Origin: a virus
DNA: 44,360 nt
UHGV virus genome: UHGV-0173177
Reading direction: 5' to 3' (one strand)
How positions within the stretch are numbered: position 1 is the stretch's first letter; each line of letters opens with the position of its first letter. The translations under genes and the position numbers were made by a program. Of this stretch, positions 3,219 to 35,616 are shown one piece after another. The notes under the pieces are model-generated. The model was not told the DNA's origin. It did no database searches and was given only the letters and a program-made list of their open reading frames with translations.

Positions 3219-3395
3219 TCACTCACTTTTGAATGGCATTTCGTAGAAGTTAGTTAACTGCCCCCGGTCACTCCGTTCTGTCATTTCTTTCGAAGCCTCT
3301 TCCTTACTACCCACGGCGTAAATATCTACCCACTCGTCCCATTCTTTGTCGTATACGCGGATTACGTATATTGTTTTCATTACATTCTTACTCAT
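3219..3395 (-). CDS. small hypothetical protein (58 aa)
   Basis: Hand-translated - strand ORF MSKNVMKTIYVIRVYDKEWDEW...; below the 60-aa track cutoff; GGAG upstream; last gene of the - strand island. Confidence 0.3.
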   Translation of the reverse strand: MSKNVMKTIYVIRVYDKEWDEWVDIYAVGSKEEASKEMTERSDRGQLTNFYEMPFKSE

Positions 3396-3618
3396 CAATA
3401 TTACTCCTGTACTCCCGTAACTTCTCCAGACTTTCTATTGCTTCTGCTAAGTCGGTTCCTGTGTCTTTGTGTCCGCGAAGGCCCATACACAACAGCTTCT
3501 TCAATGCGTGCTGTAGCGCCGGGTCGCGTATATCGAAGGCGCGTAGCACATCATAAACGTCTACTGTCATAGTGCTGCCGTGAGTGTTTGTCATTGTGCG
3601 GTTGTATTTATTTGTCAC
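3388..3618 (-). CDS. hypothetical protein (76 aa)
   Basis: ORF in the - strand island; GTG start at 3618 with GAGAG upstream, or the internal ATG at 3594. Confidence 0.45.
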   Translation of the reverse strand: MTNKYNRTMTNTHGSTMTVDVYDVLRAFDIRDPALQHALKKLLCMGLRGHKDTGTDLAEAIESLEKLREYRSNIDE

Positions 3619-5352: not shown

Positions 5353-5380
5353 AATTATTTCCTCGGTAAGTTACAAGTGA

Positions 5381-5409
5381 ATAGTACCCTATTATATTGG
5401 GGTGCGCAA
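5381..5409 (-). promoter_or_regulatory. sigma70-like promoter (class 2: TTGCGC-17-TACTAT) with AATAG-N4-CTATT palindrome over the -10
   Basis: - strand reads TTGCGC accccaatataataggg TACTAT tcacttg; near-identical architecture to the promoters at 28979 and 30513. Confidence 0.5.
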
Positions 5410-18952: not shown

Positions 18953-19237
18953 TTAACTATAATAGCTCGCTATTAGGTCGTCAACCTGTTTAAACGAACC
19001 AACGACAAAAACATTTGCACCACGTTTACGCATCCGCTCATGCTCGCGTAACTGGTGCGGGTCTGGCTTCGTGTTTTCGTCTTTTTTAACCTCGACGAAC
19101 CAGATGATGCCGCCGGGGAGAATTACCAGCAGGTCGGGAGCGCCGGAGCGCCCCTCGTAGGAAAGTTTACGAACGAGGCCCCCAATGGCCTCGAATCGCT
19201 CTTTTGCGTATTTCTGAATCTTGCCTTCCGGTGTCAT
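18953..19237 (-). CDS. VRR-NUC domain nuclease
   Basis: 94 aa; …GAPDLLVILPGGIIWFVEVKK… matches the PD-(D/E)XK core typical of VRR-NUC proteins. Confidence 0.6.
   Translation of the reverse strand: MTPEGKIQKYAKERFEAIGGLVRKLSYEGRSGAPDLLVILPGGIIWFVEVKKDENTKPDPHQLREHERMRKRGANVFVVGSFKQVDDLIASYYS
18956..18984 (-). promoter_or_regulatory. sigma70-like promoter (class 1: TTGACG-17-TATAGT) with AATAGCTCGCTATT palindrome in the spacer
   Basis: - strand reads TTGACG acctaatagcgagctat TATAGT; lies within the last codons of the VRR-NUC gene. Confidence 0.45.
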
Positions 19238-23214: not shown

Positions 23215-23243
23215 ACTATAATAGTTAGCTATTCAGGTGTCAA
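23215..23243 (-). promoter_or_regulatory. sigma70-like promoter (class 1: TTGACA-17-TATAGT) with AATAGTTAGCTATT near-palindrome in the spacer
   Basis: - strand reads TTGACA cctgaatagctaactat TATAGT; about 60 nt upstream of the SSB-like gene start. Confidence 0.55.
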
Positions 23244-24650: not shown

Positions 24651-24919
24651 ACCCTGTTCTCCCACTGGTCAATTAAATGCCTGGTCTTGTGGTCGCAATG
24701 TAAGGCCCACCCATACATCGACTCGAAGACATAAAAGTCAGGTTTGGCGAAAGTTGTGCGCTTAATCTGTGACACGTGACGGCCAATATCTTTATGCCGT
24801 GGTACTTTGCCTAAGTACGCCATCTCTTCCATCTGGTGAGCACCGGACGGCGCACGCAATAGCCATAGCGCCTCTGTGTTATCCCGCCTGTCGACGGCGC
24901 GGTAGAGTTGGTAAATCAT
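24647..24919 (-). CDS. hypothetical protein (90 aa)
   Basis: ORF with ATGA coupling to the nuclease gene; no motif confidently recognised. Confidence 0.45.
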   Translation of the reverse strand: MIYQLYRAVDRRDNTEALWLLRAPSGAHQMEEMAYLGKVPRHKDIGRHVSQIKRTTFAKPDFYVFESMYGWALHCDHKTRHLIDQWENRV

Positions 24920-24962
24920 AATTCCGACCCTCAGTTAAAGCGGCCCGAAGGCCGCGGGATAG

Positions 24963-25481
24963 TTATTCTTCTTCGAAATACTTGTTCTTGATTGCCATCA
25001 GGCGTTCCAGGTACTCGGCCAGGTCTTCGTCTTTAATCGCAGCAATCTTCATCTTCTTACCCGTGAACTCCTCCAGCAGTTCATCAGAATCGTCGCACGC
25101 GGCGTCGCTCGGGCCTTCGTTAATCGCATCGTCGATAGCCTGAATCTGGTCACGAAGAGACTGATAATCGACTTCCTTATCCTCTTCCGGCTCTGGCGTT
25201 GGTTCCTCTACTTTAGCTTTACGCGGCTTGCGTTTCGGCTTCTCTTCCTCCGCAGGTTTAGTGTCGACGATGTCTTCACCTTCAACCGGGATTTCTTTCG
25301 CCTTCTCGACTTCTTCAAGTGCTTTAGCCAGTTCTTTTTTAACTGTCTCTACCCCAGTTACCGCGACGTCAACAGTCAATTCACCTACAGATTTGCTAGT
25401 CGGTTGTTTCACACTGTTTGCAGCAATCAGTTCGTGGGCGACTACGAAACGTTCCAGTAATACTAAGAATTTCTCTAACAT
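24963..25481 (-). CDS. highly acidic protein (172 aa), first gene of a leftward early operon; candidate DNA mimic
   Basis: Long Asp/Glu-rich stretches with one basic KPKRKPRKAK patch; ATG 25481 about 25 nt downstream of the promoter at 25513-25541, with ACGAGAGGAG leader. Confidence 0.5.
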   Translation of the reverse strand: MLEKFLVLLERFVVAHELIAANSVKQPTSKSVGELTVDVAVTGVETVKKELAKALEEVEKAKEIPVEGEDIVDTKPAEEEKPKRKPRKAKVEEPTPEPEEDKEVDYQSLRDQIQAIDDAINEGPSDAACDDSDELLEEFTGKKMKIAAIKDEDLAEYLERLMAIKNKYFEEE

Positions 25482-25512
25482 TTGTTTCTCTCCTCTCGTT
25501 TGGTATGGGCTA

Positions 25513-25541
25513 ACTATAATAGTGAACTATTCACATGTCAA
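25513..25541 (-). promoter_or_regulatory. sigma70-like promoter (class 1: TTGACA-17-TATAGT) with AATAGTGAACTATT palindrome in the spacer
   Basis: - strand reads TTGACA tgtgaatagttcactat TATAGT; a second operator-like site (AATATGGTACTATT, 25562-25575) lies 44 bp away toward the HTH gene. Confidence 0.55.
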
Positions 25542-25605
25542 TGGGCTTTTCTAAAATAATTAATATGGTACTATTCACATATCAACTAACTAAGGAGTAA
25601 TTGTC

Positions 25606-25821
25606 ATGCAACCATCTGAACTAGGCATCCGTGTAGAAAAACGCCGTAAAGAACTCGGCATCTCCCAGCGCCGTCTGGCGGTGCTGACCGGGGTTTCCCA
25701 GGGCGCAATTAACCAGCTGGCACTTGGGGTAACCCAGGACGTCCGCCCGGCAACGCTGTTTAAACTGGCGGAAGTGCTGGAGGTAGACGCCAAGTGGCTG
25801 GCGCTAGGTGAAGGGGCTTAA
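25606..25821 (+). CDS. XRE-family helix-turn-helix transcriptional regulator (Cro/CI-like)
   Basis: 71 aa; LGISQRRLAVLTGVSQGAINQLALG is a classic XRE HTH; AAGGAG RBS; sole + strand gene, divergent from the 25481 operon and convergent with the primase gene. Confidence 0.7.
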   Translation: MQPSELGIRVEKRRKELGISQRRLAVLTGVSQGAINQLALGVTQDVRPATLFKLAEVLEVDAKWLALGEGA

Positions 25822-25838
25822 CGCCCCTTTCTTTTTAC

Positions 25839-28079
25839 CTATTCCAAATCCTCTTCTGTCACTACCAGCATTTCATTCGGTTCGTATATTGTCTTCGGTC
25901 TTAGTCTATCCCCTATTCTTTCAGGTATACGATACGTTCTCGGTACTACTTCGCCATTAGCATCACAGCCTAGCATTAGTTCACCATCTTTCAGCATTTT
26001 ATCAAGATGGGTGTTAGTCACAGAAAAGTCACCGGAACGGGCCACTATCTGCTGCTGAGTAAAACCGCGACCTGTGTCATCTGACTGTTGCAGGTCTTCC
26101 AGTGCCGAAAGTATCGACTCCTTCCTTACTTCATCCCTGCCGCGTTTAACTTCTTCCTTTACTTTTTGTTTACCTTCGTTAGTTAACCCTTCTTCCCGCT
26201 CCTTCTCCTCGTCAGTTTTGAACGGCTCGAAGCCCCACGGCATCAGAACAAGCGCCTTGTGTGGTTCCGGCAGGTCGAGGTTTACGATTGTGCCGTATTC
26301 CTCTGTGCTGCCCAGGAACTCAACAGCACGGTACTCTTTCGGCGGTGGTGCTTCACGGAACTGTACAGACTCCAACACCATGCCAACCGTTTTCTGTTGA
26401 GGGCCGTGCTTAAATTTTGAGTGGTATACGTTTATCTGACGGTCGGTTGCGCGTTCAATTGTCAGTTCCACGTCGACCCCAGCATACAACGCCCCGCTGC
26501 CACGGGCTTTCTTTCCACCTTTCGGTGTATGGTGGACAACACCCACCGCGGCTTTGGTTGCGTCGCGTACTTCTTTCAGGATGGCGATAACCTTACCCAT
26601 GCCGATTGCCGTTGATGAACTGTTCTCGTCGAACTTATCAATCGTCAGGGCCAGTGTCTGGTTGAGAGTATCGAACGCGACCATGCCGATGGGTTCGCCA
26701 CCCGCAGTTTCTCGCATTAGCTTAATCAGGCTTTTCAGTTTGCCAACTTCGCCCATATCGATGACATGTACATAATATTTACCTTCCTCGCCGTATTTAG
26801 CCGCGAGTGCATCAATACGGGTGCGTGTGGCAGCACCGCCCTCGCCGTCAATATAGAAATGGTGGCAACGCTGTGTATCAGCGCCGGCAAACCGGTACCC
26901 GGCGGCGCTCAGGTACATCATCCCCAGCGTATAGAAGGATTTGTACGTGCCGGATTCCCCGACGATGTCCCAGATGCAATCCGAGGGCATGTACCCTTCA
27001 ACGACGAAATCAGCCTTTACCGGTTCAGGTAACTCGTCCTCCTCTGAGCCTTCGTCATCTTCCAGGTCGTCCAGGCTGCATGAAACGGACTCTCGCGCAC
27101 CCCAACCGATAGCCTCTGCTACTTCACTGAATGGCAGCCCGGTCGCATCGCACGCATACTTCCACACCTCTTTCGGTGACATGCCTTCGGTTGCCGTAAT
27201 GTCGGTGTCGTGAATCATGGTTACGTTTGGCGCGGCGTAACCCTCTCGCGGAAAGCACAGCAGGAAATCATCCGGGCGTGGCGTCGGGTCGCTGTAGTTT
27301 TCTGCGTGTTCTGGTGTGGCAGGCATTTTAAGGCCGCGGGGTGTCATAATACCGCCATACTCGAATGCCAGTGCTTCAAACGCATCGGTAAACGCAGTGC
27401 GCAGTTCTTCCGGTATCTGGTAATCCGATGCGCTGCTAACGTCAACGGCGGGGATGCCTTCCAGCAGTTCTTCCGGGTCAATCAGGTCGTTGCGGCGCGA
27501 CCAAATAACGGTAGAGCCAACCGGCGGCAGGTACATCGGCTGCGACAGAGTGAACCCGCTGCGGTCAGCGCCCATGCCTTTGAAGAAGTGCTCGAGCAAT
27601 CCGTGGCGAACGCGGATGATGTCGCCACCTTCGACCGGGCGACCAAGCGGCATAACGACGCGAAAGCGCGGTGACCCATCGGTATGTGATGCCGTGGTAT
27701 AGAGGCACATGGCCAGGCGGCTGCGCTTAACCAGGTGCACAGCTTCCTGATACTCTTCCGGCGTTGCACTGTCGAAGTCCAGGTAGGCCAGTGATGATTT
27801 GCTTACAGAGGCGTCGCAGCGATAGAAGAAGCCTTTACGCGCTTGCTTAAAGTCCCCGGTTTCCTGGTCTTTTACGGTGCTGTGTGTTGAGTCGCACGCG
27901 GCTGTGATATAGCCGGGCGCGGTCTTAGGGTTAACCCCATCACGAACAGCATCGAGCGGCCGGATTAACTCTTTCAGGTCGTCCAGTGTTGCCGTGTGTG
28001 TGGTTCTGACGTTTATATCCTTTTTCTCTGCCCGCGCGTTGCGACGAGACCACGAGTAGGATAAAATTACATCGGACAT
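25839..28079 (-). CDS. primase-helicase (N-terminal primase-like region, C-terminal RecA-fold helicase domain)
   Basis: 746 aa; Walker A GESGTYKS within a RecA-like region; Walker B-like VVHHT; large N-terminal domain typical of phage/plasmid primases. Confidence 0.65.
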   Translation of the reverse strand: MSDVILSYSWSRRNARAEKKDINVRTTHTATLDDLKELIRPLDAVRDGVNPKTAPGYITAACDSTHSTVKDQETGDFKQARKGFFYRCDASVSKSSLAYLDFDSATPEEYQEAVHLVKRSRLAMCLYTTASHTDGSPRFRVVMPLGRPVEGGDIIRVRHGLLEHFFKGMGADRSGFTLSQPMYLPPVGSTVIWSRRNDLIDPEELLEGIPAVDVSSASDYQIPEELRTAFTDAFEALAFEYGGIMTPRGLKMPATPEHAENYSDPTPRPDDFLLCFPREGYAAPNVTMIHDTDITATEGMSPKEVWKYACDATGLPFSEVAEAIGWGARESVSCSLDDLEDDEGSEEDELPEPVKADFVVEGYMPSDCIWDIVGESGTYKSFYTLGMMYLSAAGYRFAGADTQRCHHFYIDGEGGAATRTRIDALAAKYGEEGKYYVHVIDMGEVGKLKSLIKLMRETAGGEPIGMVAFDTLNQTLALTIDKFDENSSSTAIGMGKVIAILKEVRDATKAAVGVVHHTPKGGKKARGSGALYAGVDVELTIERATDRQINVYHSKFKHGPQQKTVGMVLESVQFREAPPPKEYRAVEFLGSTEEYGTIVNLDLPEPHKALVLMPWGFEPFKTDEEKEREEGLTNEGKQKVKEEVKRGRDEVRKESILSALEDLQQSDDTGRGFTQQQIVARSGDFSVTNTHLDKMLKDGELMLGCDANGEVVPRTYRIPERIGDRLRPKTIYEPNEMLVVTEEDLE

Positions 28080-28137
28080 GTTGTATTTCCTTCAGCAAGT
28101 AATTTGGCCTCGGCGTTCACCGCGTCGGGGCTTTCTT

Positions 28138-28371
28138 TTATTCCAGGTCTTCTAAAGTAGCGGTCATTCCGCGAACTTCAGCAACGGCGCTATATTTCCC
28201 GCCAACATTTTTCACGACACCAGATTTAACCAGCACCTTCAACGACCCTTCAATAATGGCTGAACTATAGTACTTAAAATAACTACGGCGCAAGTCAATA
28301 ACGCTACACGACCCTTTTTTACGTGTTAACGAAACGACTGCTGTAAATACGCGTGACTGAAACTCGGTCAT
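28138..28371 (-). CDS. hypothetical protein (77 aa)
   Basis: ORF with ATGA coupling to the upstream HTH gene. Confidence 0.4.
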   Translation of the reverse strand: MTEFQSRVFTAVVSLTRKKGSCSVIDLRRSYFKYYSSAIIEGSLKVLVKSGVVKNVGGKYSAVAEVRGMTATLEDLE

Positions 28372-28538
28372 TTCACGTTCTCCTTAATCCATGCTTCCAC
28401 TTTCTCCGGGTCAAACGTACCTGGCTGACGACGGCCCATAATGCGGATGCAGCAATCCGGGAACTTCCCGCTCTTTAACCAGTTATTCAGCGTGCGACGG
28501 GTAACCCCGATACGCTCAGCTACCTCATTCTGTGTCAT
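28368..28538 (-). CDS. small helix-turn-helix DNA-binding protein (AlpA/excisionase-like)
   Basis: MTQNEVAERIGVTRRTLNNWLKSGKFP is an AlpA-type HTH; start trimmed to ATG 28538 with GAGGG RBS (track start 28571 is a TTG). Confidence 0.55.
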   Translation of the reverse strand: MTQNEVAERIGVTRRTLNNWLKSGKFPDCCIRIMGRRQPGTFDPEKVEAWIKENVK

Positions 28539-28570
28539 TCTCAAACCCTCATTATTAGTTAACGAAACCA

Positions 28571-28599
28571 AGTATACATTGCGAATAATGGGAAATCAA
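28571..28599 (-). promoter_or_regulatory. sigma70-like promoter (TTGATT-17-TATACT) for the leftward HTH/primase operon
   Basis: - strand reads TTGATT tcccattattcgcaatg TATACT, about 35 nt upstream of ATG 28538. Confidence 0.5.
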
Positions 28600-28978
28600 A
28601 CATAATCGCACCTATTGACATTATGAAAATCTTCGTTTAAGGTGCTTCTATATCTTAGTTACTTTGATTCCTGTTCACCTTGTAAAACCGCTTAAAACGC
28701 AGCTGCGCGCAGCGCAAGCAAAGTGTTAAGCGAAAGTTTACTGAACACGAGAATTATCGTAACTTTCCTTCCTAAGTATCTCCGGTTGCCCTGGGCAAGC
28801 TCTATTCACATCGGCAGCATATCTCTTAAGTATCTGATTTTCTTAATGTGCCGTAGATTCGCAACCGTAAAAATGTAACGATTATTGGGCAGGCTTAGGG
28901 CCTGCCCTTTAGTTACCAAGTAATAAGAATAAAGGCACAACCTTCCCAGAAGAATCACAACGGCAACGTAACTATCTC

Positions 28979-29007
28979 TTGCACGCCCCAACATAATAGG
29001 ATACTAT
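28979..29007 (+). promoter_or_regulatory. sigma70-like promoter (class 2: TTGCAC-17-TACTAT) with AATAGGATACTATT palindrome over the -10
   Basis: TTGCAC gccccaacataatagga TACTAT tcactt, followed by leader ACGAGAcagAGGAG and ATG 29042. Confidence 0.55.
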
Positions 29008-29041
29008 TCACTTATCGAAACGAGACAGAGGAGTGAGGGTT

Positions 29042-30199: not shown

Positions 30200-30334
30200 C
30201 AGGTCAATAGGTTACTATTTGACTGAGTGACTTACGCTGCTACACAGCAGCGTACAACTTTAGATTAGTGTCGTCAAAAAGCGACACTTTCACCGAACGC
30301 AACAATCGAAGCGACTATTGCAGGAGATGCAACA

Positions 30335-30505: not shown

Positions 30506-30512
30506 AATTTAC

Positions 30513-30541
30513 TTGCACGCTAGGATAGAATAGGCTACTAT
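30513..30541 (+). promoter_or_regulatory. sigma70-like promoter (class 2: TTGCAC-17-TACTAT) with AATAGGCTACTATT palindrome over the -10
   Basis: TTGCAC gctaggatagaataggc TACTAT tcattt, followed by leader ACGAGAGGAGAGACAGAAG-ATG (30573). Confidence 0.55.
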
Positions 30542-30572
30542 TCATTTACACGAACGAGAGGAGAGACAGAAG

Positions 30573-35212: not shown

Positions 35213-35383
35213 ATGTTCAGTGACATTAACGCAGCAATAGAAGAAGCAATCTGGCGCCGGTACAACGGCGATCAACAACGGCACTTCTGCCTGGTGCAGC
35301 GCGGTAACATGATTGCCGTAGTGCAGGACCGCGATAATAAATACCCAAATGCAATGTGGACGACGAGGAATTTCTTAGGATGA
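35213..35383 (+). CDS. small hypothetical protein (56 aa)
   Basis: Hand-translated; GGAGG RBS 6 nt upstream; ATGA overlap with the next gene. Confidence 0.3.
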   Translation: MFSDINAAIEEAIWRRYNGDQQRHFCLVQRGNMIAVVQDRDNKYPNAMWTTRNFLG

Positions 35384-35616
35384 TTACCAGCATTCCGAAC
35401 CTGATTAAAGAATTTGGCACGATGGCCGAGACATGCCGACAAACCGGCCTCAACGAAATGACGATTGCGAAGTACAGTAAAGACGTTAACTGTGAGCGCC
35501 ACGTAATTTATAACAACCGTCTCATGACGCACGTTAAGACAAGCCCTGTGTTATTCACCCGCCGGGGTATCACTAAAACTGAGCAACGTATCGCACGAGA
35601 GGAGGGTGATGTATGA
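35380..35616 (+). CDS. hypothetical protein (78 aa)
   Basis: ATG 35380 (track ORF 35356 trimmed); ATGA coupling. Confidence 0.4.
   Translation: MITSIPNLIKEFGTMAETCRQTGLNEMTIAKYSKDVNCERHVIYNNRLMTHVKTSPVLFTRRGITKTEQRIAREEGDV

Follow-up and report, generated by a model that had tools for sequence, protein, structure and literature searches.

A lone Cro-like regulatory gene and a family of promoter-embedded palindromes in a virulent Kagunavirus genome

What does a single repressor-like gene do in a phage that otherwise looks strictly lytic, and which promoters might it control? The question is raised by UHGV virus genome UHGV-0173177 (44,360 bp; this whole stretch is called the window below), which is a near-complete genome of the genus Kagunavirus (Guernseyvirinae, virulent siphoviruses of E. 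coli). A gene for a 71-amino-acid protein of the XRE family, with a helix-turn-helix (HTH) domain resembling 434 Cro, faces a leftward operon headed by the gene for an acidic protein. An earlier note on this DNA, made from the sequence alone, took the arrangement for an autoregulated repressor gating a divergent early operon through two local operators. Our analysis points to a broader role: the XRE protein may be a dimeric repressor of the 434 Cro type that acts without a CI partner, regulates its own synthesis and turns down many phage promoters in the lytic cycle. Arguments for and against this reading are, in our judgement, about evenly balanced.

A palindrome family inside sigma-70 promoters

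The region between the XRE gene and the acidic-protein operon (25482-25605) is 124 bp long, as had been claimed, and it contains the strong leftward promoter described in the note. This promoter, P_L (Table 1), is one of only three - strand matches of at least 10/12 in the window; both of its hexamers are kept in Kagunavirus, Jerseyvirus and Cornellvirus, and it drives the acidic-protein/exonuclease block of replication and recombination genes. The A/T-rich block next to it is probably an UP element. A 25-nt direct repeat (25517-25541 and 25561-25585, 84% identical, 44 from start to start) holds two palindromes, O1 and O2. The note had likewise seen two palindromic sites 44 bp apart, and two related sites with this spacing do exist, but their conserved unit is AATAG-N4-CTATT and not GTGAA..TTCAC. 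The sequence GTGAA-cta-TTCAC of site 1 was rejected as an operator on the grounds that it varies among 34 Kagunavirus loci from IMG/VR (32 variants). In the same loci both arms, AATAG and CTATT, are invariant, the N4 centre is variable, and the stretch between CTATT and the -35 hexamer of P_L differs in sequence and length. O2 is nearly invariant in Kagunavirus; sites at its position read ATTAC-TGTA-CTATT in Jerseyvirus and ATTAC-TGAT-GTATA in Cornellvirus, 42-45 nt before the ATG.

Two rightward promoters can be written for the XRE gene itself. One is TTCACA-16-TAAAAT (10/12), the TAAAAT of which is included in the A/T-rich block; the other is the extended -10 element TGg-TACTAT, which overlaps O2. 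We prefer the latter as the candidate P_xre, because Jerseyvirus (TACTAT) and Cornellvirus (TATATT) have -10-like hexamers equally far from their Shine-Dalgarno sequences, and the TTCACA -35 is variable. O1 and O2 are the only closely paired copies of the palindrome in the genome, and their pairing is kept in the three genera, with spacings of 44, 55 and 64 bp.

The palindromes had been presented as sites of this region. They are indeed present here, but the genome has at least eight copies, and the two are thus not peculiar to this region. A search of the window with the 16-mer that the two sites share returned related copies at 5370, 23228 and 29003, and the common core turned out to be the 14-bp palindrome AATAG-N4-CTATT, which is perfect at 5380, 18961, 23220, 25518, 28995, 30206 and 30529; the copy at 25562 has a single mismatch. 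When up to one mismatch is allowed, the window contains 12 occurrences against 1.0 expected; a shuffle control gives expectations of 0.02 perfect and 1.1 one-mismatch copies, whereas seven perfect ones are observed. All copies are intergenic or lie at gene boundaries, in promoter-like contexts, and among the nine sigma-70 matches of at least 10/12 in the whole window, those three that are best on the - strand all bear the palindrome.

The placement of the palindrome relative to the promoter hexamers falls into two classes. The logo of 142 distinct Kagunavirus and 33 distinct Jerseyvirus site sequences reads TtGAcA-N2-TG-AATAG-N4-CTAT running into TATA(G/T)T, which places the palindrome, in a sigma-70 promoter whose spacer is 17 bp long, at about -25 to -12. 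In the second class, TTGCAC-N10-AATAG-NN-TACTAT, the palindrome lies over the -10 hexamer; its members include the promoters at 28995 and 30529 (both rightward) and at 5380 (leftward), together with O2 at the XRE gene. The 28995-29008 copy also overlaps a weaker leftward TCGATA-17-TATGTT, and the 5380-5393 copy is shared by a rightward GTTACA-17-TATATT and a leftward TTGCGC-17-TACTAT. Throughout these site sequences the 5-bp arms are invariant and the 4-bp centre is variable, the Kagunavirus flanks being usually TG-AATAG...CTATT-A; in this the motif behaves like a dimer-binding site.

As an observation in its own right, the rightward promoters are repeated promoter-leader cassettes, in which TTGCAC-N17-TACTAT is followed by a conserved leader AACGAGA..GAGGAG (window 28977-29032 and 30511-30572; L002 36319-36378 and 37544-37602); this suggests that whole expression units were duplicated ahead of small early genes. 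When IMG/VR was scanned for the promoter-operator in its Kagunavirus form, five of the contigs not previously known to have XRE were tested: four are themselves Kagunavirus (XRE and/or SSB match), and the fifth, L102, has neither XRE nor SSB and is probably a chance match.

Table 1. Features of the XRE locus and copies of the palindrome elsewhere in the window
Feature	Position	Strand	Description
First gene of P_L unit	24963-25481	-	acidic 172-aa (amino acid) protein, phrog_3127, no Pfam match
P_L	25513-25541	-	-35 TTGACA (25541-25536), 17-bp spacer, -10 TATAGT (25518-25513), 11/12
O1	25518-25531		perfect palindrome AATAG-TGAA-CTATT, about -25 to -12 of P_L (in spacer)
A/T-rich block	25545-25561	-	TTATTTTAGAAAAGCCC on - strand, upstream of P_L -35; similar block in all three genera
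O2	25562-25575		AATAT-GGTA-CTATT, one mismatch; over candidate P_xre -10
Candidate P_xre	25566-25574	+	extended -10 TGg-TACTAT, 17 nt before Shine-Dalgarno; predicted start about 25581
Shine-Dalgarno of XRE gene	25592-25597	+	AAGGAG, read from sequence; kept in all genera
XRE/HTH_3 gene	25606-25821	+	71 aa, 434-Cro-like
Intrinsic terminator of XRE transcript	25810-25838	+	8-bp stem (25810-25830) including stop codon, then T-run
Palindrome	5380-5393		divergent region between 5352(-) and 5517(+)
Palindrome	18961-18974		in spacer of TTGACG-17-TATAGT, upstream of methylase and SNF2-helicase genes
Palindrome	23220-23233		in spacer of TTGACA-17-TATAGT, upstream of Gp2.5-like SSB and DNA polymerase genes
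Palindrome	28995-29008		main divergent region; over -10 of rightward TTGCAC-17-TACTAT (first small rightward gene, 29033)
Palindrome	30206-30219		between two small rightward genes; TACTAT present, -35 poor
Palindrome	30529-30542		in rightward TTGCAC-17-TACTAT; leader AACGAGAGGAG as at 28995 site
Palindrome DNA for XRE dimer (putative target)			TGAATAGTGAACTATTCA

The XRE gene, its protein and its neighbourhood

The XRE HTH gene reported in the note is there: the ORF (open reading frame) gives a match to Pfam HTH_3 at 47.1 bits (cut-off 23; E 2.5e-12). It is a genuine gene, because the variable sites among 32 distinct Kagunavirus alleles are distributed over codon positions 1/2/3 as 11/3/51, and because the antisense ORF that some GenBank records annotate over it is open in only 6 of the 32; the antisense ORF is spurious. 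In PV656001, the closest GenBank relative, this spurious ORF is annotated in place of the XRE gene (L079 3571-3732, corresponding to about 25590-25793 of the window, - strand), and several other GenBank records leave the gene without annotation. Many records label it 'transcriptional repressor', 'DicA' or 'helix-turn-helix'.

The best match of the XRE protein in PDB, found by phmmer, is 434 Cro (E 2.2e-6), which has the same length of 71 amino acids; the DNA-binding domain of the 434 repressor is also close. The AlphaFold2 model (confidence score, pLDDT, 78) has helices at 5-17, 21-28, 32-39, 48-57 and 62-66, and its best Foldseek match is 2cro (TM 0.70/0.76, 42% identity), with C.AhdI and C.BclI among the neighbours. 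As modelled, the protein has the five-helix fold of the 434 Cro/repressor type. The HTH occupies approximately residues 21-39, with the recognition helix S31-Q-G-A-I-N-Q-L-A39; the first Gln of this helix is common to the XRE protein and 434 Cro, and the rest (Q-G-A-I-N-Q) is unlike 434 Cro. There is no S24 or oligomerisation domain in the XRE protein, which consists of a DNA-binding domain of Cro size only.

The gene is convergent with the primase-helicase gene, as the note had it: the latter ends at 25839, and the XRE terminator sits between this end and the XRE stop codon. Read on the - strand, the terminator stem has no T-run after it, i.e., it is unidirectional, from which one may speculate that leftward transcription of the primase-helicase gene could run antisense over XRE. 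In RNA-seq of the Kagunavirus vB_Eco_K1B4, the XRE orthologue vB_Eco_K1B4_004 (3386..3601, + strand, between the acidic-protein and primase-helicase genes) is transcribed in infection and assigned to the 'middle' class, the time classes of that study being coarse (PMC12645636).

XRE orthologues were found in 546 phage records and the neighbouring SSB gene in 541, and for this reason the XRE gene is essentially universal in the Kagunavirus/Jerseyvirus group. About 450 Kagunavirus and Jerseyvirus records retain the whole module, from the replication operon through the divergent region to XRE, and so do Cornellvirus and a Serratia relative. The earlier suggestion that the layout is unusual for a lytic phage does not hold for this lineage, given its universality in those records and the repressor label that the gene often bears already. 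Jerseyvirus SETP13 has a layout identical to the window. XRE is followed on its own strand by a co-transcribed primase-helicase gene in Cornellvirus FSL SP-031 and Serratia phage Smarc3. Relative to these, Kagunavirus and Jerseyvirus have the primase-helicase segment inverted (window 25839-28571 against L003 11449-13749 and L081 37260-39605), and it is because of this inversion that XRE stands as a lone + strand gene convergent with primase-helicase. The constant core is a leftward replication operon, the divergent region and a rightward XRE gene. Dhillonvirus SSL-2009a has a different protein, of 109 amino acids, at the XRE position.

The attribution of the window to Kagunavirus rests on its size and gene order, which are those of a complete Kagunavirus genome, and on a megablast search with 24900-26000, which matched 446 phage records; the top matches were Escherichia phages of this genus, with identity up to 94.7%, and the remainder were mostly Salmonella phages of the genus Jerseyvirus. 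Pfam scans of the mid-size ORFs of the window revealed no integrase domain, and the other large ORFs have structural orthologues, in agreement with the claim that an integrase is missing. The phage otherwise looks lytic, as the note had said: besides the lack of integrase and of CI, none of 5,426 complete E. coli genomes contains a prophage copy of this region.

Two further observations concern the gene. A type I-E CRISPR array of E. coli 2017.09.02CC (NZ_AP025214.2) contains a 35-nt match, 97% identical, to the 3' part of XRE (window 25769-25803; L131 1201-1235; at two places in the record, beside iap, cas2e and cas1e); a natural host has therefore gained a spacer against this gene. A seeming natural knock-out of XRE in Jerseyvirus GE_vB_HIL (L082 2592-2600) was discounted: the frameshift is a one-base deletion in a run of C, the record is marked UNVERIFIED, and a sequencing error is probable.

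A possible one-repressor circuit and its competitors

In the circuit that we propose, the XRE protein would be made from its own modest promoter and would recognise the 14-bp AATAG-N4-CTATT. The perfect O1, in the P_L spacer, would be bound first, excluding RNA polymerase from P_L; the imperfect O2, over the -10 hexamer of XRE itself, would be bound at higher concentration and bring about negative autoregulation. At least six other sigma-70 promoters with the palindrome would also be turned down, namely those of the SSB/DNA polymerase genes, the methylase/helicase genes, the small rightward genes and the 5.4-kb divergent region, and accumulation of XRE in mid-infection would lower a large share of phage transcription. 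Repression rather than activation is proposed on account of position: promoters whose hexamers are already good carry the site in the spacer or across the -10. We infer the binding of these sites by XRE, the repression by binding and the order of occupancy from the arrangement of the sequences.

The idea of an autoregulated repressor gating a divergent early operon is retained here in its local part, i.e., one palindrome within the spacer of P_L and a weaker one across the probable XRE -10, an HTH protein of Cro size, and a conserved module. It is too narrow, however, in that there are at least eight sites in the genome, the facing operon is one of replication and recombination functions rather than of the earliest genes, and XRE is 'middle' in the RNA-seq of a relative. 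If XRE binds the palindromes of at least eight promoters, it is therefore a global regulator and not a gatekeeper of one operon. In its widest form, the proposal is that one 71-amino-acid Cro-like protein without CI governs most transcription of a virulent siphovirus through operator palindromes in sigma-70 promoters, at least eight in number and its own among them, the operators being specific to the genus (AATAG arms in Kagunavirus and Jerseyvirus, A[AT]TA[CG] in Cornellvirus); this we advance tentatively, with somewhat more doubt than belief.

We put at about one half the probability that the XRE protein is what binds the AATAG-N4-CTATT palindromes. XRE is the only recognisable sequence-specific HTH protein common to all three palindrome-bearing genera, including Cornellvirus, in which the promoter spacers carry a variant quasi-palindrome, A[AT]TA[CG]-N4-[CG]TA[AT]T (five copies in SP-031 against 0.6 expected, and three in L052 against 0.23), with one copy in the P_L spacer and a one-mismatch copy over the -10 of XRE. 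Next to the distal arm, 113 of 142 Kagunavirus sites have G and all 33 Jerseyvirus sites have T, and this genus-specific flank parallels the diverged recognition helix of XRE; the helix of the TorI-like HTH_17 protein does not diverge likewise. HTH_17 and its 77-amino-acid neighbour were considered as binders and rejected. What spoke for them at first was their co-occurrence with the motif in Kagunavirus and Jerseyvirus and their absence from Cornellvirus, a genus without AATAG-N4-CTATT. The HTH_17 protein is about 89% identical between the former two genera, with a helix mostly the same in both; the two genes are both replaced by unrelated ORFs in the Kagunavirus contig L024, which keeps six palindromes, and Cornellvirus has the variant palindrome. 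The Cornellvirus palindrome GAATAAnTTATTC was dropped as a distinct genome-wide motif (its copies are clustered, one of them inside a coding region), and so were sites of the host regulators CRP, Cra, NarL and DnaA, none of which agrees with the spacing or with the conserved positions. A word-indexed protein search for XRE homologues with the same helix outside the family gave Kagunavirus-type proteins only, and the distant homologues in IMG/VR have other helices and unrelated upstream palindromes.

Several facts weigh against XRE as the binder or against the role proposed for it. The recognition helices of Kagunavirus (Q-G-A-I-N-Q) and Jerseyvirus (Q-S-L-I-T-H) differ at four of five specificity positions, yet the AATAG arms are the same; SETP13, the XRE of which is 48% identical to that of Kagunavirus, has six perfect AATAG-N4-CTATT copies. 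The Jerseyvirus and Cornellvirus (Q-S-A-I-S-H) helices are more alike than their motifs, and the covariation of helix and motif appears mixed overall. In Serratia phage Smarc3 the module likewise includes an XRE orthologue, yet the genome-wide palindrome is missing. Perfect sites in Jerseyvirus also precede structural operons (head morphogenesis, tail chaperone), which fits early shut-off poorly; the regulon is therefore not simply 'early'. The coarseness of the K1B4 time classes has to be counted here too, as do the spacings of the paired sites: the 44 bp amount to 4.2 helical turns, close to the four turns claimed in the note, but the values in the three genera (4.2, 5.2 and 6.1 turns) are only roughly whole and make a weak argument for cooperative binding. 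As for Smarc3 itself, its divergent region (L081 36625-36836) has no AATAG palindrome and contains four to five copies of GATTGC, among them one in each promoter spacer, possibly the operator of its diverged XRE (helix Q-G-M-L-N-H).

Failure of the XRE helix to track the motif across genera, together with the retention of XRE in Smarc3 in the absence of the palindrome, would be expected if some other factor bound it, either an unrecognised small phage protein (for instance, the NinH/Fis-like product of 35356-35616) or a host protein. The target of XRE would then be a different one, perhaps purely local or host-directed, and the two sites near its gene would be ordinary members of a phage promoter family. 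The three genera do have in common a weak NinH-like protein and several unknown small proteins, but none of them is a recognisable sequence-specific dimeric HTH, and L024 and Cornellvirus exclude HTH_17 and the 77-amino-acid protein. A host factor would leave the genus-specific flank unexplained, and also the Cornellvirus variant, which occurs in a phage with the same host as Jerseyvirus; moreover, the only paired sites of the genome flank the XRE gene. All told, we regard another binder as unlikely, if deserving of attention. We consider it distinctly unlikely that there is no dedicated repressor at all, that the repeats are two copies of one promoter core and that the palindrome merely arises from -10-like hexamers (nnCTAT on both strands) placed back to back in bidirectional or tandem sigma-70 promoters that spread by duplication. 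An arm with two central bases does make TACTAT or AACTAT on either strand, a plausible -35 is found at 17 bp in both orientations at 5380, 28995 and 30529, and the sharing of whole promoter-leader cassettes by the rightward promoters suggests duplication. Nevertheless, the sites at 18961, 23220 and 25518 have no opposite gene or -35, yet no Kagunavirus or Jerseyvirus site sequence shows variation in its distal arm; the register of the palindrome with respect to -35/-10 differs by promoter class (-25..-12 and -19..-6), as would that of an independent element; and sigma-70 is not known to prefer AATAG in the spacer.

The remaining explanations are much weaker than repression by XRE. The labels 'repressor' and 'DicA' in GenBank, a TorI-like homologue of recombination directionality factors in the genome and an Ant-like gene in Jerseyviruses, noted as puzzling in PMC9409062, could be taken for a remnant or cryptic lysogeny or immunity switch in a phage that is, or recently was, temperate or pseudolysogenic. 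This is highly improbable, considering the solitary DNA-binding domain of Cro size, the lack of a second repressor, of an integrase and of any prophage among those E. coli genomes, the divergent partner, which is an acidic protein heading replication genes, and the genome-wide spread of the motif. Nor do we see more than a very faint chance that the direct repeats are replication-origin elements (iterons, or DnaA-box-like CTATTCACA) beside the primase-helicase gene: CTATTCACA in both repeats agrees at 8/9 positions with the DnaA-box consensus TTATNCACA, and an A/T-rich stretch lies between them, but the CACA part is free to vary at site 1 in Kagunaviruses, the cumulative GC-skew minimum and the lowest G+C are at 28-29.5 kb and not at 25.5 kb, and the conserved part is the palindrome common to seven other promoters. 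Finally, the motif was flagged by PHIRE and assigned to promoters of a phage-encoded RNA polymerase in fBC-Eco01 (PMC9825357), and seven PHIRE promoters were listed for VB_EcoS-Golestan (PMC7203180). The chance of such a polymerase is next to nil, as there is no RNA polymerase gene among the ORFs of the window or in annotated relatives and every site comes with sigma-70 -35/-10 hexamers; the assignment made for fBC-Eco01 is wrong because these genomes have no RNA polymerase gene.

Relation to known systems, and other features of the genome

434 Cro binds 14-bp palindromes. The XRE protein shares its fold and family, its length and about 40% identity, with the first Gln of the recognition helix kept; its putative target is likewise a 14-bp palindrome, with sites over promoters including its own, and its presumed role, the lowering of earlier transcription, is that which Cro has at P_L and P_R in the lytic growth of lambda and 434; the Cro proteins of 434, lambda and P22 act on OR/OL. 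In contrast to 434 and lambda, the window has no CI, tripartite OR, integrase or lysogeny, and the divergent gene is no repressor: a CI-type protein with a C-terminal oligomerisation or S24 domain is not what faces XRE, its place being taken by the acidic protein. Instead of three adjacent operators over back-to-back promoters, the XRE locus has a pair spaced 44 bp, one within the spacer of P_L and the other across the -10 of candidate P_xre, and at least six more are scattered over the genome; the half-site is AATAG, compared with ACAA in 434. The layout also differs from that of Aca-type regulators of anti-defence operons, the HTH gene of which is co-transcribed behind anti-defence genes from a strong promoter with inverted repeats, since XRE is divergent, alone and equipped with its own terminator, and the facing operon has exonuclease and replication functions; and no endonuclease gene adjoins XRE, as one would for the C protein of a restriction-modification system.

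The conserved inverted repeats of the actinophage phiC31 and the stoperators of the mycobacteriophages L5/Bxb1 are examples of one regulator with many dispersed promoter-associated sites. Those regulators are immunity repressors of temperate phages, and stoperators are asymmetric and block elongation; the sites of the window are palindromic and lie inside promoter cores, and the phage is virulent. In T4, MotA-box middle promoters combine a phage element with host sigma-70 promoters to define a temporal class, but the MotA box replaces the -35 and activates, whereas the window promoters keep near-consensus -35 and -10 hexamers with the element in the spacer or the -10, which argues for repression.

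The palindrome itself, the repressor label, and Cro-type repressors with promoter-overlapping operators are all known already. The PHIRE consensus of 'phage promoters' in fBC-Eco01, tgAATAGTa-ccTATTat-T with seven copies per genome (PMC9825357), is the same motif, and in the GenBank record of that phage one PHIRE promoter stands directly upstream of the XRE orthologue; the palindromic nature, the position in the sigma-70 spacer and the link to XRE are unremarked in the fBC-Eco01 and Golestan papers. What is new is the likely regulon-wide use of such a pair in a virulent phage, and the attribution to an RNA polymerase is corrected. If the proposal is true, Guernseyvirinae have a minimal one-repressor timing circuit; the published assignment of the sites to a non-existent phage RNA polymerase is set right; the timing and limiting of expression are explained for a phage that has no RNA polymerase of its own and near-consensus promoters of the host type; a compact repressor/operator pair becomes available for engineering; and the safety worry evoked by a 'repressor' annotation in strictly lytic phages is removed, the gene being given a function in the lytic cycle. 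Among the phages isolated for therapy and biocontrol of E. coli and Salmonella, Kagunavirus and Jerseyvirus are some of the most frequent, and their gene regulation is little explored; the BASEL paper, citing phage CM001, considers the small 41-44 kb genomes of Guernseyvirinae attractive for synthetic biology.

Other features of the genome may be listed briefly. The acidic 172-amino-acid protein, served by the strongest promoter of the genome, has conserved N- and C-terminal parts and a variable central linker rich in Glu, Lys and Pro. In the main divergent region, 460 bp of non-coding DNA at 28572-29032, G+C is at its lowest for the genome and the cumulative GC skew reaches its minimum; the region may be a replication origin or serve early control. 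Inside it are a hairpin resembling a terminator (28887-28907) and, immediately ahead of the HTH_17 gene, a promoter-like site on the - strand (28599-28571) that lacks the palindrome. The HTH_17 gene (28368-28571; phrog_66, 'excisionase and transcriptional regulator') codes for the TorI/Xis-like protein in this genome without integrase. A TorI-like protein without integrase was already remarked as a Jerseyvirus marker (PMC9409062), and the gene (_008) is of class 'early' in the K1B4 data (PMC12645636). At L024 12559-13144, corresponding to about 28138-28571 of the window, HTH_17 and the 77-amino-acid gene are replaced by a 149-amino-acid ORF and a 47-amino-acid ORF of CxxC...CxxC zinc-ribbon-like type; this shows that the head of the leftward early operon undergoes modular exchange.

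The 9-mer ACAACGGCA occurs ten times on the + strand (5664, 12489, 13981, 23720, 28957, 29413, 30785, 35275, 41255 and 41878) and once on the - strand, against about 0.4 expected from an order-3 Markov model, in genes of both orientations. Its excess could be a codon-usage effect or a strand-specific signal; the AACGGCA core is also enriched in Jerseyvirus SETP13 and Cornellvirus SP-031.

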